DNA of 61,071 nucleotides from Candidatus Bathyarchaeota archaeon (GTDB taxonomy: Archaea; Thermoproteota; Bathyarchaeia; Bathyarchaeales; Bathycorpusculaceae): contig CAVTZU010000004.1 in NCBI GenBank assembly GCA_963739305.1, positions 1 to 61,071 on the forward strand, written 5' to 3'. Both the position numbers and the translations under genes were made by a program. The notes under the pieces are model-generated. The model searched no databases and was not told the origin of the DNA. It was given only the letters and a program-made list of their open reading frames with translations. Positions within the stretch are counted from its first letter, which is position 1; every line of letters begins with the position of its first letter. Positions 34,706-44,283 of this stretch are shown here, one piece after another.

Positions 34706-34909
34706 TCTTGTTCACACCTCAGTGTATTCAAGAAGGATATGCTTTTTTGCTTCCAGAATCGCTGGAAATGGCACGCTGATGTCGGGTCCTCTGCAGGTAT
34801 CCGCTCAGCATAATGAAATCTTATTACCTTGTCTCGCTGGTTACTTAAGACTGGTGAGAGTCCGCGCGGGGAACCGGCAGCTAACAGCTCGATCAGGAAG
34901 GGCAGTGTT

Positions 34910-36235
34910 TTGAATAGGCCAGCAAGGAGAAGGACACGTGAAAAGGCAGATTTGTTGATCGTTAATGCTAATGAAATGGTTACGCTCGCTGGAGACAACC
35001 GAAAACCGCGTACTGGGAAGCAGATGCTTGAGCTGGGAATAATTCACAACGGCTCCTTGGCAATCAAGGATGGAAAAATCGTTGCAGTGGGAGAGACACC
35101 TGAAACGACAAGAATCTACAAATCCGAGAACATTATCAGCGCTGACGGCAAGACAGTCCTGCCGGGCTTCATAGATTCTCACACGCACCTCGTCTTTGCA
35201 GGCTCGCGTGAAGAAGAGTTCCAAATGCGGATAGAAGAAGCTGTGCCCTATGAGGTTTCCAACAGAGGTTACAGCGTAATGAAAACCGTGAAAGAAACGC
35301 GAAGGGCAAGCGCAGAGAAGCTGGTGGAAAAAGGTACGGAAACGCTGAGTTCAATGTTGGAGCATGGGACAACCACAGCTGAAGCTAAGAGCGGTTATGG
35401 GTTGACGACCAGAGACGAGTTGAAAATCCTCGATGTTGTTCAGCGTCTGAATCAAATGCACCCCGTTGATGTTGTTCCAACGTTTCTGGGCGCCAATGCT
35501 GTCCCTCCTGAGTTCGTGAACAAGCCTGAAGATTTCGTGAATCTAATAATCAATGAGATGATTCCCAAAGTCGCTGAGAAAGAACACGCAGAATTTTGCG
35601 ATGTCTATTGCGAGAGAGGCGCCTTCAATTTGGATCAGTCCCGACGCGTCTTGGTCGCAGGCAAAGGCTCAGGTCTGAAGCCTAAAGTGCACGCCGACGA
35701 GATGAGCCTTCTAGGTGGTACGGAGCTGGCTGCTAGCGTCGGAGCAGTTTCAGCCGATCAAATGCTCTTTTCTTCTGACGATGGTATAAAGGCAATTGCC
35801 GAGAAGGGAGTTGTTGCCACTCTGCTTCCAGCATCTTCTTTTAGTCTGATGAACGGTCGTTTCGCAAACGCCAGAGAAATCATTAACCTCGGCGTACCAT
35901 TGGCACTGGCCACTGATTTTAGCCCGACCTGTTGGGTTGAGAACCTCCAACTCGTTATCGCATTCGCATGTCACTTCATGAAGTTGAATACCGCTGAGGC
36001 GATAACTGCGACGACGATTAATGCCGCGCACGCTCTTAGCAGAGCAAGCGAGATTGGAAGCCTCGAAGTCAACAAGAAAGCTGACGTACTAGTGTTGAAC
36101 GTGCCGAATTACAGGTTCCTGGGCTATCGATTTGCCGTTAACCTAATTGACAAAGTCATAAAGAACGGCAGACTCGTAGTCGACAAAGAAGCTACTGAAG
36201 ACGAATATCGGCTCATTGAAGAACAAGAAATGTAG
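34910..36235 (+). CDS. hutI: Imidazolonepropionase (divergent)
   Basis: PGFIDSHTHLVFAGSR, GTTTAEAKSGYGL, FCDVYCE, HADE, LATDF; upstream of hutU; TTG start at 34910 inferred. Confidence 0.85.
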   Translation: MNRPARRRTREKADLLIVNANEMVTLAGDNRKPRTGKQMLELGIIHNGSLAIKDGKIVAVGETPETTRIYKSENIISADGKTVLPGFIDSHTHLVFAGSREEEFQMRIEEAVPYEVSNRGYSVMKTVKETRRASAEKLVEKGTETLSSMLEHGTTTAEAKSGYGLTTRDELKILDVVQRLNQMHPVDVVPTFLGANAVPPEFVNKPEDFVNLIINEMIPKVAEKEHAEFCDVYCERGAFNLDQSRRVLVAGKGSGLKPKVHADEMSLLGGTELAASVGAVSADQMLFSSDDGIKAIAEKGVVATLLPASSFSLMNGRFANAREIINLGVPLALATDFSPTCWVENLQLVIAFACHFMKLNTAEAITATTINAAHALSRASEIGSLEVNKKADVLVLNVPNYRFLGYRFAVNLIDKVIKNGRLVVDKEATEDEYRLIEEQEM

Positions 36236-36307
36236 ACTTCCCTTCGGCTGTGCACTCACAAACAATTAAAGCGAGCCTGAGCATTTTTTCATGGACAGTG
36301 AACCCTT

Positions 36308-37963
36308 GTGAAGCTCGAAAAGCCTATACATGCACTGACCGGCAGCAAGCTGCATTGCAAGAACTGGCAGATTGAAGGAATTCTTCGCATGCTGACCAAC
36401 GTACTTGACCCGAACGTTGCAAAGAATCCTGAAAAACTGATCGTCTACGGCGGGACTGGCCAAGCTGCACGTAACTGGGATTGTTTTGACCACATAGTTG
36501 AAACGTTAACCCATCTTGAACCTGACGAAACCATGCTGATACAAAGCGGCAAACCAGTTGCGGTTTTTAAGACACACGAGTATGCTCCCAGGGCTCTTAT
36601 CGTTAACGCGATGCTTGTTCCCAAATGGGCAACCTGGGACTACTTCTATGAACTTGAACAGAAAGGCTTGATCATGTACGGCCAGATGACCGCAGGATCT
36701 TGGGCTTACATTGGGACACAGGGAATCTTGCAGGGCACTTACGAAACGTTGGCTGAGGTTGCCAAGGAACATTTTGGTGGAAGCCTAAAAGGAAAGCTTG
36801 TGTTGACTGCGGGCTTGGGTGAAATGGGCGGGGCACAACCGTTGGCGGTCACGATGAACAATGGCGTAGCCTTGATTGTTGAAGTTGACAAGTGGGCTAT
36901 TGATCGTAGGCTCAAACACAATTATCTTCAGTCGTGGACCGACGACTTAGATGAAGCCATAACGATGGTCAATCAAGCAAAGGAGGAAGGAGTTTCAAGA
37001 AGCATAGGTCTTCTCGGGAACGCGGCGGAAGTGTACCCAGAACTGTTGAAACGAGGAGTAATTCCCGATGTCTTAACTGACCAGACCAGCGCGCACGATC
37101 CGCTGAACGGTTATTATCCCGTCGGTATGAATAAGAACGAGGCAGACGAACTCAGAAAAAACGACCCGCAAGAATACGTTAAGCTTGCCAACAAAAGCAT
37201 GCGTGTTCAAGTTGAAGCAATGGTCAAAATGATGCACAGGGGAGCCGTGACTTTTGACTACGGGAACAACCTGCGAGAACAAGCCTACAAAGCCGGCTTC
37301 AAAGACGCTTTCGCTTACCCTGGCTTCGTCCAAAGATATATACGACCAATGTTCTGCGAAGGCAAAGGACCATTCCGCTGGACCTCACTTGTCGGCTGTG
37401 AAGATGACATACACAAGCTCGATGACGTCGTCCTCAGAGATTTTGGCTACAATAAAGAACTCTGCAGATGGATCAAAAAAGCAAGAGAAGAAGTGAAGTT
37501 CCAAGGCTTGCCGGCAAGAGTCTGCTGGCTCGGCTTCGGAGAACGCGCAAAATTCGGAAAAACAATCAACAAAATGGTAAGAGACGGAACCCTTTCAGGC
37601 CCGGTCTGGATTGGTCGGGACCATCTTGACTGTGGAAGCGTGGCTTCACCTTACCGAGAAACCGAAGGCATGAAAGACGGAAGCGACGCAATCGCTGACT
37701 GGCCGGTTCTTAACGCTCTTTTGAACGCTGTCAGCGGAGCAACATGGGTCAGTGTACACCACGGCGGAGGCGTGGGCATCGGCTACAGCATCCACGCAGG
37801 CATGTGTCTGGTAGCAGATGGAACCAAGAAAATGGAAAAACGCATAGCGACCGTGCTGACGACAGATCCTGGAATTGGAATTGTTCGTCATGCTGATGCT
37901 GGTTACGAGAAGGCACAGAGAATAGCCAAAGCCAAGGGCATCAAAATGCCGATGCTGAAGTAA
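36308..37963 (+). CDS. hutU: Urocanate hydratase
   Basis: [48 protein letters not shown]. Confidence 0.96.
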
Positions 37964-39784: not shown

Positions 39785-41131
39785 TCATTTTCTCTTCAAT
39801 CTGCGAGCGAGTTTTTCAGTGTCATCGTCCACGGGAATCTTCGCTCTCTCAAACTTCTCTTTGGGCTTCGATAACGGTCTCGTGGCGTCGAAGCCGACTT
39901 TCGAAGTCAATACTCTGTCCTGATCGGCCGAAGGATCTAAAGTCGAACCGCGAACATTTTGAATTACAACCAAATCTTCGCTACCCTGAAACCGTGTTGC
40001 TAGAGCCCACTCAACGTCAGAAATGTCAAAAACATCGACATCGGAATCCACGACAACCGCATGTTTCAAACTCGGATGTGCAGCAAAGGCTGCCAACAAC
40101 GCATTTTTTCCATCACCATCAACATGTTTCTCAACAGAAATTATGGCGTGAAGCCATCCGCTTCCGCCTCTCGACAGATTCACTGCATAAACCCTTGGAA
40201 CCACTTTTGAAACGGCATCCCAAATTAACACTTCATGCGGCAACCCCATCAAAACCAGATGCTCCATCCCAGACGAAAGAAGCGCATGATAAACATAATC
40301 TTCCCTATGCAGGACACCAACTACATCCACGATCGGTTGCTTTCTCTGCACATCATACGTGCCCGTGATGTCAACAAACGGTCCTTCTGCTTCTTCTTTC
40401 ACAGCTGAGATTCTTCCTTCTAAAACCAGTTCAGCGTCAGCTACAGCCGCAGCGTTCACGTGCTCACACTCTGTCAACTTGAGACTACCGTTCAACATGG
40501 CATTCGCAATATCATATTCACACACGCCAAAGGGCACCGGCGAAGATGCTGCTAACAAGACGGTTGGGTGAACGCCAATGGAAATCGCGATATCCAGATC
40601 TTTGCCGACTTTTTTTGCCGATTGATATAGAGAAAGAAGATGTCTCGGAACGAGGCGAATTGCCAGATGCTTTTTGTCCAAGACTTGGAGACGATGAACC
40701 GACACATTCTCAATTTTCCCATCGACACTTCTTGCGTGAACAACCGCGGAGGTAATGTATGGTCCAGCATCATTCTCAAAGTGTGTCAAAACCGGAATCT
40801 TGGAAAGATCCACCTCCTTCTCAACGCATTCTTTAACTGCCGCGCCTTTGACAACCCTCGGTTTTGTAGGACACCGCCAGACTTCAATCAACCTATCATA
40901 CAGCATGTCCTGACCCACCTGAAGCGCTTTGCAGATTCTCTTCCGAGTTCCAGACACATTTGCAACGACGTTGGTTTCAAAGTCCTTTACTTTGTCGAAA
41001 AACAGAATTGGGCCTTCATGATCGAGTTGTTTTATGATGTATGGAATTTGAAAACGAGTCTTAACCTGTTCTCTAACGTGCAAAACCTCTTTTTCCTTTT
41101 CCATCTGATTCAGAAACTCTCTAAGGCTCAT
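39785..41131 (-). CDS. UbiD-family prFMN-dependent decarboxylase
   Basis: DAGPYIT, NVSVHR, EGPFVDITGTY, VVVDSDVD, VEWALATR, LDPS, KVGFDAT. Confidence 0.93.
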   Translation of the reverse strand: MSLREFLNQMEKEKEVLHVREQVKTRFQIPYIIKQLDHEGPILFFDKVKDFETNVVANVSGTRKRICKALQVGQDMLYDRLIEVWRCPTKPRVVKGAAVKECVEKEVDLSKIPVLTHFENDAGPYITSAVVHARSVDGKIENVSVHRLQVLDKKHLAIRLVPRHLLSLYQSAKKVGKDLDIAISIGVHPTVLLAASSPVPFGVCEYDIANAMLNGSLKLTECEHVNAAAVADAELVLEGRISAVKEEAEGPFVDITGTYDVQRKQPIVDVVGVLHREDYVYHALLSSGMEHLVLMGLPHEVLIWDAVSKVVPRVYAVNLSRGGSGWLHAIISVEKHVDGDGKNALLAAFAAHPSLKHAVVVDSDVDVFDISDVEWALATRFQGSEDLVVIQNVRGSTLDPSADQDRVLTSKVGFDATRPLSKPKEKFERAKIPVDDDTEKLARRLKRK

Positions 41132-41514
41132 GCTGTCAACCCCTCCTTTTGTGCTTCTTCATGAGCAACTCTTTCCATAAGACGTTTGAAAGCCGAGTGC
41201 GCCTGTTTTTCGTCCATCGCCTCAAGGTAAACTGACACCAATGCTATCTTCTCCTTGAAGGAAGCCAGCTGCTCAGCAAACATCCGTGCAGAAATAGCGT
41301 TCTTTTCACCTAGAAGTATCGACGAAGAGGGAGGGCCGATGAAATCTTTAGGTTTTGGAACTGCGATGGCCAGCGTGCCAAGTTTATCTTCCCCTTCACT
41401 TAACAAAACCATACACGAATTCTTAGCTTCCATATAGATGGCCAGAAAACGTGTGTTCTGCTCGACTATTTCGTCTTTGACGACTCTTGCACGTTCCAGC
41501 TTTTTCCCCTCCAT
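41128..41514 (-). CDS. Proteasome-assembly-chaperone-4 (PAC4)/LpdD-like small protein
   Basis: KLGTLAIAVP..SSSILLG..ARMFAEQLA..KIALVSVYL resembles the PAC4 pattern as I recall it; ATGA overlap with the UbiD gene. Confidence 0.6.
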   Translation of the reverse strand: MEGKKLERARVVKDEIVEQNTRFLAIYMEAKNSCMVLLSEGEDKLGTLAIAVPKPKDFIGPPSSSILLGEKNAISARMFAEQLASFKEKIALVSVYLEAMDEKQAHSAFKRLMERVAHEEAQKEGLTA

Positions 41515-42269: not shown

Positions 42270-43583
42270 CTAGAATAGTTGCTTGAAGGATGCAAAGTCT
42301 ATGTGGTTCTCTTCGACCACCGGAATCTCCTTCATGTTCTTGTCAAGCTTGACTTTTCCTAAGGCAAGAATTGCGACTTCTCCAACGACGGGTGAGCACA
42401 CTTTTACGGCCCTTCGCACGTAGTCAATTTCTTGCACTACGCCAATGCCAAGGAATTTCCTCTTATCATTGTACATTGCGGCGAGCAATCCTTCTTCGTC
42501 CCCTTTTCTAGTAACGATGACCTTCTTCTTGGTGAATTCTTCTACCTTTCTTATGTTGTCCGAACTGATCCAGCGTCTTCTACCAATGATCACGCTCAAC
42601 TTCCCCGCGAGCTCTGCCATCTGCAATGGTTTCATTCCAAGAAGAGCATAGATCTTGTTAGCATCTCTTGCGTTCATGTGGGATTTATTCAGCACGAAAG
42701 ATTCGTTTCCTTCAACCTTCACCCAACTCAAAGAAAGCGACTGGATTCGTGGGTTTCTCAAGTATTTCTTGTAACCCAGTTCACGTAGCCCTCTTCGTTT
42801 CTCTCTATCTCTTGGCTTGACTGCAGGCGGTGATTCCACAAGGATTTTTCTGGTCTTTTGGATAGAGGCAAAGATCTGTGCAAGCTCATCTTTTTGCTGG
42901 ATGAAGAAAATCACGTCTGGGTTAAGTTCTTCAACAAGTCTCAGTTTGTAGCTAACCGCGCATTCTCCTTCAACCCACCCATCCGTGTTTATGATGAGAA
43001 CGTCGGGGTTTCCGGAAAGGGCTTCCTTTTTGAGTAATGACAAGCCCTGAACCATCCTGTCAGTTGCATTTCCAGCAGTAGTTTCGCCGATGAAGAAGGC
43101 ATTCTTCGCTTGCAGGTTGAAAAGGTCGGTGATTGGCTTCGCAACGGAGGCGAAGGCGATTGTGGATGGCGGGCCAACATCAGACTGTCCCAAATCTCCA
43201 TCAAGAATCGTGACTTTCTTCTTTTCACCCACCAGTCGATTTGTCATGTACGTGCAGAAACTGGATTTTCCAGAATCGACGGCCCCCAGCACTATCGCAG
43301 AAGTAGGTGCAGATTGCGAACCCAACAATTCCTGAATTGAGTTGATCCATGAACTTGGAATTGTGTCTCCGGCAACTTCATCAATTGAGGCGCCTTCCCC
43401 AGCAGATATTTCAAAACTAGCCGTTTCATGTACCGCGAACGGCAATCTCTTTCCTTCACGGATGACAACTTTGCTTGCCACATTTGTCGTTAGTCCAAAA
43501 ACCTCAACTTTTCCTGAATTCACTATTACTGAAGCTGGACCGTCAACCAACAACGTTGTCCCTTTGTTAACTGTGCGATTCAT
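42270..43583 (-). CDS. Clp1-family polynucleotide 5'-kinase
   Basis: GAVDSGKS, DGDLGQSDVGPP, INTDGW, RRGLRE lid. Confidence 0.9.
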   Translation of the reverse strand: MNRTVNKGTTLLVDGPASVIVNSGKVEVFGLTTNVASKVVIREGKRLPFAVHETASFEISAGEGASIDEVAGDTIPSSWINSIQELLGSQSAPTSAIVLGAVDSGKSSFCTYMTNRLVGEKKKVTILDGDLGQSDVGPPSTIAFASVAKPITDLFNLQAKNAFFIGETTAGNATDRMVQGLSLLKKEALSGNPDVLIINTDGWVEGECAVSYKLRLVEELNPDVIFFIQQKDELAQIFASIQKTRKILVESPPAVKPRDREKRRGLRELGYKKYLRNPRIQSLSLSWVKVEGNESFVLNKSHMNARDANKIYALLGMKPLQMAELAGKLSVIIGRRRWISSDNIRKVEEFTKKKVIVTRKGDEEGLLAAMYNDKRKFLGIGVVQEIDYVRRAVKVCSPVVGEVAILALGKVKLDKNMKEIPVVEENHIDFASFKQLF

Positions 43584-44220
43584 TTGTCCTACTCCTTTGA
43601 AATGTATGTCCGTTTCTTCCAGCAATCTTTGTTGCCGAAAAGATGTCTCTTAGCCCTCTTCTGTGTTTCGCTTCGTCCAAGCAAGAATCTGTGCCAGCCT
43701 CTCCCACGCTCTCAAGAATCACGCCTGAGGGAAGTGTTTTGTCCAGGGCTTTTAGGAGTTTTTCTTTGCAGTCTGGAACTCCGTCTCCCACTTTAACGCT
43801 AATCGAAGAGACGGGAGTGTCCGCCAAGTTCTTAATGACTTCTTCTATCGTATGCACGGCTTCATTCAGACTGTAACAGTTCTCCGTTTCGACCACTCTT
43901 CCCCCAGCTAGAACCGCCAGCCCAAAGATTTCTCCAGGGTCCACGCCTATGGAGACTTTTTCGAATAATTCCTTCCCCTGAACAAGTCGCAAAGCCTCGT
44001 TCACTGTTGGTGCAGGATTGTCTCCTATCTTGTAGGCAAGTACGTTTTCGTGATTTATCAATTCTTTCTCCTCTTCCGTGGTTATGACAACTTTCACTTC
44101 TATAGGAACAGGCTCACGAGGTGTTAGGCTCAAAAAAGGGACGTTCCTTCCCTTAAGCTCGTTGACGAGATGGTAATAGGCCTTTCCTGAAATGGTTGCG
44201 ACAGCAATTCTCTCTTTCAT
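43567..44220 (-). CDS. Hypothetical protein with RNase H-like (YqgF/Tex-like) domain
   Basis: IGVDPGE..GLAV, VKVGDG, V.E..T, DIFSA..IA; overlaps the clp1 start. Confidence 0.65.
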   Translation of the reverse strand: MKERIAVATISGKAYYHLVNELKGRNVPFLSLTPREPVPIEVKVVITTEEEKELINHENVLAYKIGDNPAPTVNEALRLVQGKELFEKVSIGVDPGEIFGLAVLAGGRVVETENCYSLNEAVHTIEEVIKNLADTPVSSISVKVGDGVPDCKEKLLKALDKTLPSGVILESVGEAGTDSCLDEAKHRRGLRDIFSATKIAGRNGHTFQRSRTNESHS

Positions 44221-44283
44221 ACAGCAGTCCTGACGATCCCATGCATTTGAACACAAAACACATTATAAATCGGCGCTTTATAT

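Follow-up and report, generated by a model that had tools for sequence, protein, structure and literature searches.

In a 61,071-nucleotide stretch of DNA from Candidatus Bathyarchaeota archaeon (assembly GCA_963739305.1, contig CAVTZU010000004.1, positions 1 to 61,071; hereafter the window), a conserved gene for a 128-residue protein, related in sequence to the eukaryotic proteasome assembly chaperone PAC4, overlaps the start of a gene for a UbiD-family decarboxylase, probably the anhydromevalonate phosphate decarboxylase (AMPD) of the mevalonate pathway. We lean towards the view that this protein, of the PAC3/PAC4/LpdD fold, is an accessory or maturation factor of AMPD that most likely works in the manner of LpdD. 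LpdD of Lactobacillus plantarum is described, in the portion of PMC10865409 available to us, as a chaperone of UbiD decarboxylases that binds the reduced form (prFMNH2) of prenylated flavin mononucleotide (prFMN). Co-produced with AMPD and in contact with it, the archaeal protein would most likely be a small protein, probably a dimer, holding the reduced cofactor; within the same mode, it might otherwise aid the loading or maturation of prFMN in the apo-decarboxylase. A working tie to AMPD and the prFMN system is suggested because the stop-start overlap recurs in two classes of the phylum, because in one of these the pair behaves as a cassette, and because a relative (genome G183) carries the PAC4-like gene within a UbiX-UbiD-AcnX mevalonate cluster. 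Cofactor handling or enzyme maturation is suggested by the fold together with the precedent of LpdD. The elements of the gene pair are as follows.

41131..41514, stop codon 41128-41130, minus strand: gene for the predicted PAC3/PAC4/LpdD-fold protein, 128 residues (open reading frame and translation)
41128..41131, minus strand: ATGA, stop of the small gene overlapping the UbiD start (read from the sequence)
41141..41146, minus strand: GGAGGG, Shine-Dalgarno-like, 9 nucleotides 5' of the UbiD ATG, within the 3' end of the small gene (sequence)
39788..41131, stop codon 39785-39787, minus strand: gene for the UbiD-family decarboxylase, 448 residues, probable AMPD (Pfam, TIGR00148)

The overlap claimed in a preliminary description of this DNA was confirmed, the four bases at 41128-41131 being common to both genes, and GGAGGG is a putative Shine-Dalgarno-like site from which UbiD would be translated.

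Fold and family of the 128-residue protein

The 128-residue open reading frame (ORF) is not a chance frame, because it has 2551 protein matches at E ≤ 1e-3, with 97 representatives at the 50% identity level, and because its AlphaFold2 model, built on an alignment of 57 full-length family members (A1, also the source of our family profile), has a mean predicted local distance difference test (pLDDT) score of 91.3, with a predicted template modelling (TM) score of 0.83. The model consists of a five-to-six-stranded sheet and two long helices. Searched against the PDB with Foldseek, it matched PAC4 best (8qyj_M, E 1.2e-8, TM 0.69/0.77), followed by PAC3, yeast Pba3-Pba4 and four LpdD entries (E 1.2e-5 to 4e-4), all remaining matches having E > 0.1; VIA likewise returned PAC4, PAC3, Pba3-4 and LpdD. 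The structures compared were human PAC4/PSMG4 (PDB 5WTQ and 8QYJ chain M), PAC3/PSMG3 (2Z5E, 6JPT), yeast Pba3-Pba4 (2Z5B, 2Z5C) and LpdD (8PO5, 8PZO, 8P4W, 8PZH; Pfam PF21758). Every relative anticipated for the fold in the preliminary description (PAC4, Pba3/4 and LpdD) was thus recovered, and the model places the gene product as a predicted archaeal member of the PAC3/PAC4/LpdD fold superfamily, with a PAC3/PAC4 and Pba3/Pba4-like fold. When UbiD (alignment A3) and the small protein (A1) were modelled together as a complex, the score was 0.00 with controls not run, which counts neither for nor against contact between the two.

At the sequence level, the PAC4 pattern named in the preliminary description is present as LGTLAIAVP, SSSILLGEKN, ARMFAEQLA and KIALVSV, and it aligns with the blocks of human PAC4. 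The protein matches the Pfam PAC4 family (PF16093) at E 9.5e-5 with 22.8 bits, short of the curated cut-off of 31 bits; homology to PAC4 is therefore likely, with strict PF16093 membership below the cut-off. Neither an NCBIfam match nor, in a single-sequence search, a PDB match at E ≤ 10 was obtained. The only real protein that the A1 profile retrieved from the PDB was human PAC4 (E 3.3e-8, spanning 61 positions). At E ≤ 0.01, PF16093 is matched by 49 of the 57 members and the LpdD family PF21758 by 12, with the PF16093 cut-off reached by ten; PAC3 (PF10178) matches are weak and occur in two members (E about 0.1). One member (P0177) is alone in exceeding the PF21758 cut-off (32.6 bits), passes that of PF16093 as well and, searched by itself against the PDB, finds PAC4 only (E 0.024). 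The sequence relationship to the LpdD Pfam family runs, as these matches show, through other members of the family. Across A1, N32 and G69 are invariant and G46, T47, P53, A80 and E81 nearly so. Database names vary: PF21758 is called 'PAC_bac' in one Pfam copy and 'LpdD_chaperone' in Pfam 38.1 (Atlas), and the Atlas clusters of archaeal relatives carry the automatic name 'proteasome assembly chaperone 4 family protein'. When metagenomes were scanned with four LpdD-like members (A5), a single locus came back, ended by a contig edge.

The partner enzyme is probably AMPD

The 448-residue protein has the three-domain UbiD architecture, PF20695 (UbiD_N), PF01977 (UbiD) and PF20696 (UbiD_C) all matching strongly (the three E values, in order of strength, are 2.7e-59, 3.4e-35 and 1.7e-15); it matches TIGR00148 at E 3.5e-119 (398 bits) and PDB 6h6v from end to end (E 1.7e-99). 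It is the single UbiD match in the 2.3-Mb assembly, which also encodes two pairs of large and small AcnX subunits, on contigs other than that of UbiD. In a FastTree phylogeny of 77 UbiDs, comprising 37 PAC4-adjacent sequences and 40 others chosen from the UbiD matches, with no named AMPD sequence included, clade A, with 20 sequences (support 0.98), separates from clade B, with 57 (support 0.995). The UbiD of the source genome falls in clade B together with all PAC4-adjacent and all AcnX-adjacent UbiDs sampled. When the listed coordinates were compared by eye, UbiD lay at most about 1.5 kb from AcnX in at least 40 genomes, among them genomes of families f13, f15, f22 (as UbiX-UbiD-AcnX) and f36 and those of the source organism's own class in which UbiD stands apart from the PAC4-like gene. 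As far as the available text of PMC12547664 goes, AMPD catalyses a prFMN-dependent reaction in the main pathway by which archaea make membrane-lipid precursors, and in M. mazei its gene (MM_1526) adjoins the dehydratase genes MM_1525 and MM_1524 and the enzyme requires prFMN made by MM_1871. Because the source-genome UbiD groups with AcnX-adjacent UbiDs in clade B, as MM_1526 adjoins dehydratase genes, we assign it as probably AMPD; what the preliminary description had offered as a possibility is thereby raised to a probable assignment from phylogeny and gene context.

Family f1 holds two types of UbiD, the PAC4-coupled type being 38% identical to that of genomes G077 and G190 (subclade support 1.0). 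The second type, found in G077, G190 and others, is AcnX-coupled and sister to the UbiX-linked UbiDs of f22. Two UbiD lineages within one GTDB family suggest replacement of the decarboxylase gene. A different pathway gene was also seen in the source genome (G000): a GHMP-family homologue of mevalonate-type decarboxylases is split over two reading frames (G000:C28:95745-96597; L099 1248-2217), directly after a 407-residue GHMP-kinase-like ORF, and matches TIGR01240 with 121.7 and 36.4 bits, below the cut-off. A frameshift or a mis-assembly may have split a phosphomevalonate decarboxylase gene here, which would offer another possible path to isopentenyl phosphate.

Coupling to UbiD is conserved in two classes

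We surveyed 201 genomes sampled evenly from the same phylum, detecting the PAC4-like gene with the A1 profile and UbiD with Pfam; the former was found in 65 genomes and a UbiD match in 184. UbiD lies 3' of the PAC4-like gene on the same strand in 40 of the 65 genomes, comprising 26 of 26 in f9, 13 of 24 in the source organism's class (f1-f8) and the single genome of f11. It follows directly in 39 of the 40, with ubiX intervening in the last. Both genes were located by script at the 65 places, the UbiD start being taken as the start nearest to the alignment, so that single overlap values are approximate: among the 39 junctions, 36 overlap by 1 to 32 bases (20 by 4 and 13 by 8) and two have a 1-base gap, so that the junctions seen most often in the relatives are overlaps of 4 or 8 bases. 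At locus L010, the script's gap of -10 is at odds with a UbiD match that starts 24 bases past the end of the PAC4-like match. A separate search with the 128-residue protein alone reached only Bathyarchaeia (63-84% identity) and found the 4-base overlap in 23 of 25 close loci and a fragmented UbiD in that position in the other two. In these (L081 and L085, Bathyarchaeia contigs from metagenome-assembled genomes), the downstream UbiD is broken into fragments in different frames; they may be pseudogenes or assembly errors.

The f9 genomes belong to a different class of the phylum, apparently the ammonia-oxidising Nitrososphaeria, and their PAC4-like proteins are 18-21% identical to the 128-residue protein. 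There the PAC4-like gene and UbiD stand together as a two-gene cassette, with unrelated genes around it. UbiD has two paralogues in every f9 genome, of which that of about 443 residues, in clade B, is the one coupled to the PAC4-like gene; the second, about 477-480 residues as trimmed (open frames of 479-517 residues), belongs to clade A and is distant in the genome.

The gene order in G183 is PAC4-like, UbiX (TIGR00421, E 2e-77), UbiD, AcnX large subunit and AcnX small subunit. The PAC4-like/UbiX and AcnX large/small junctions each overlap by 4 bases, UbiD directly abuts the AcnX large gene, and a convergent gene for an HD plus HD_assoc_2 protein follows the cluster.

Weighing the alternatives

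Several observations weigh against an LpdD-like accessory factor of AMPD, and they concern sequence, linkage and cofactor supply. The 128-residue protein has no PF21758 match at E ≤ 1 (curated cut-off 27 bits), the A1 profile retrieves no LpdD chain from the PDB at E ≤ 10, and the family is by its sequence nearer to PAC4 than to LpdD. The accessible part of PMC10865409 describes a strictly conserved His35, His61 and Asp63 metal site in LpdD, with the metal not essential for prFMNH2 binding; A1 contains no conserved His, and this site has no counterpart there. Furthermore, the SSxLLG and LGT motifs are not conserved in f9 members. With respect to linkage, 25 of the 65 genomes have no UbiD near the PAC4-like gene within the DNA examined (11 of the own class, 8 of 8 in f16, 4 of 4 in f21 and one each in f27 and f31), and the PAC4-like gene is missing from 120 of the 184 UbiD-bearing genomes (for example, present in 0 of 17 in f13 and 0 of 17 in f15) and from two of the five f1 genomes with the other UbiD type. 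The synteny with ubiD put forward as a check in the preliminary description consequently holds in part, since the overlap is kept across two classes but f16 and f21 are entirely unlinked.

With respect to the cofactor, UbiX was not found in the source genome (TIGR00421, E ≤ 0.01; assembly 97% complete, 36 contigs), so that no known prFMN source is visible there. UbiX occurs in 120 of the 201 genomes, which leaves at least 64 with a UbiD match and no UbiX match; it was found in 0 of 8 genomes of f1, 1 of 6 of f2, 0 of 2 of f3 and 0 of 1 of f4 (f1-f4 genomes being 95-100% complete), and in 0 of 17 of f13, 0 of 8 of f16 and 0 of 4 of f21. To the same side we count the UbiD residues N142, R147, H188, E205, E234 and others, which are invariant in lineages with or without UbiX; several of them would be expected, as in other UbiD enzymes, to be cofactor and metal ligands. 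A protein search for UbiX in the source genome returned AfpA only (E 0.0017; TIGR02699, 248 bits). AfpA was considered as a UbiX substitute and rejected: it is present in 14 of the 201 genomes and in none of those sampled from f2, f3, f4, f13, f16 and f21, which also lack a UbiX match save for one f2 genome. The archaeal prFMN-delivery chaperone envisaged in the preliminary description is supported in part: it gains from the fold and from the association with ubiD and ubiX genes, but loses from the unconserved LpdD site and the missing UbiX.

The operon evidence would equally suit a small subunit present in stoichiometric amount in the AMPD oligomer, or a chaperone for the assembly of that oligomer; either would act on the polypeptide, in the way that PAC3/PAC4 act on alpha subunits, and would bind no flavin. 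We judge this improbable yet deserving of serious attention, since by sequence PAC4, itself a chaperone of protein assembly, is a closer relative than LpdD, the metal triad of LpdD is missing and the pairing persists in lineages without UbiX. A dedicated subunit or assembly chaperone would, however, be hard to reconcile with the 25 of 65 genomes in which the gene survives apart from UbiD and with the many AMPD-type UbiDs, the majority, that manage without a PAC4-like gene; the position of the G183 gene, directly before UbiX, points to the cofactor.

Alternatively, the protein could be a true archaeal PAC4 orthologue that assembles the alpha ring of the 20S proteasome, its ubiD neighbourhood being historical. 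The best sequence and structure matches are indeed to PAC4, databases label relatives accordingly, and the gene is kept in the 25 genomes where it is not beside UbiD. This possibility nevertheless seems unlikely to us, as the UbiD stop-start overlap is conserved over two classes and the gene is a member of the UbiX-UbiD-AcnX cluster. In addition, of the 24 loci where UbiD is not adjacent, 22 were scanned (57 neighbouring ORFs); the neighbours were endonuclease III, Clp1, Sua5, CBS, RadB, the HD/HD_assoc_2 protein, DNA ligase and a radical-SAM protein, with no proteasome gene or ubiX among them. One such locus, in a genome (G061) of the source organism's family, has the order Sua5-CBS-PAC4-like-EndoIII, which is that of the window minus UbiD, and the G061 UbiD adjoins AcnX on another contig. 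The 20S proteasome is, to our knowledge, universal in archaea, whereas the PAC4-like gene has a patchy range of 65 of the 201 genomes. According to what could be consulted of PMC13022661, archaeal core particles assemble unaided in E. coli, which likewise speaks against a need for such a chaperone. Finally, the family profile finds one copy in the source genome and no PAC3-like partner (PF10178 not searched there); other PF16093 matches in that genome are weak and contain stop codons.

An unrelated housekeeping function tied to recurrent neighbours appears very improbable: the HD/HD_assoc_2 gene adjoins in loci of f5, f6, f7, f8, f16 and f21 and the endonuclease III gene is divergent from the PAC4-like gene in the source locus and in f1, f5 and f6 loci, but the HD gene varies in orientation (same strand in three loci, convergent elsewhere), and its convergent position after the whole G183 cluster would explain the adjacency by loss of the middle genes, the UbiX-UbiD-AcnX block having presumably been lost from a G183-like arrangement. 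The HD plus HD_assoc_2 protein, of about 424 residues, recurs beside the PAC4-like gene in several families with varying orientation (L008, L027, L029, L030, L032, L033, L035-L037, L039-L045 and L146); in f16, genes for a radical-SAM protein and a DNA ligase come before it.

Other features of the window

Downstream of the UbiD gene, on the same strand, lie a CBS-domain gene and Sua5 (Pfam); upstream of the small gene, the opposite strand carries an endonuclease III gene, beyond which come Clp1-like and RadB-like genes. A scan for bacterial-type promoters and terminators gave no more signal than shuffled sequence. Between the Clp1-like and RadB-like genes, a 229-residue ORF (43570-44256, minus strand) is without a Pfam match and has NCBIfam noise only; a similar ORF at the 5' end of locus L015, from another family, indicates that it is conserved. 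Two long ORFs of 468 and 551 residues (34829-37963, plus strand), judged by eye, presumably resemble imidazolonepropionase and urocanate hydratase of histidine degradation.

Comparison with known systems

If the 128-residue protein is a helper of AMPD, it would bear on the activation of this enzyme, both in cells and in E. coli strains into which the archaeal pathway has been engineered. Our searches of the literature, which was available in part, turned up no paper describing a PAC4/LpdD-like protein as a partner of AMPD in archaea, although some members already carry a PAC4 family label in public databases. What is probably new is a putative LpdD-type accessory protein of UbiD in archaea that is nearer to PAC4 in sequence and tied to an essential lipid-precursor pathway. 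LpdD has so far been described, in the text of PMC10865409 at hand, as rare and bacterial, and thousands of archaeal relatives widen the reach of UbiD maturation factors. The archaeal protein resembles LpdD in its Pba3/Pba4-like alpha/beta fold and in the association of its gene with ubiD (40 of 65 genomes, 23 of 25 close loci) and, in one cluster, with ubiX. It differs in that structural alignments give 8-9% identity, its putative partner is a mevalonate-pathway decarboxylase instead of an aromatic acid decarboxylase, and many host genomes have no UbiX match. VdcD and PhdC/YclD, as presented in the accessible portions of PMC10865409 and PMC13040415, are also small proteins whose genes accompany those of UbiD/UbiX and which influence activity or the maturation of the cofactor, but none is among the fold matches of the 128-residue protein.

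On the eukaryotic side, the archaeal protein differs from PAC4 in its sub-threshold profile score, its single family-profile copy per genome in the source organism and its patchy distribution, and in a gene context of UbiD, UbiX and AcnX, never of proteasome genes in the loci scanned; from PAC3 it differs in that PF10178 is matched, weakly, in only 2 of 57 family members. One might tentatively imagine, although we doubt it more than we credit it, a common ancient family for PAC3/PAC4 and LpdD, whose archaeal form serves the mevalonate-pathway prFMN decarboxylase and from which PAC4 arose by exaptation of an archaeal chaperone of cofactor handling or enzyme maturation. On that reading, the protein may help the decarboxylase, in the many archaea that have it without UbiX, to capture scarce or externally supplied cofactor. 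No prokaryotic family closer to PAC4 in sequence was seen in these searches, and the origin of the eukaryotic PAC3/PAC4 chaperones thereby becomes testable.
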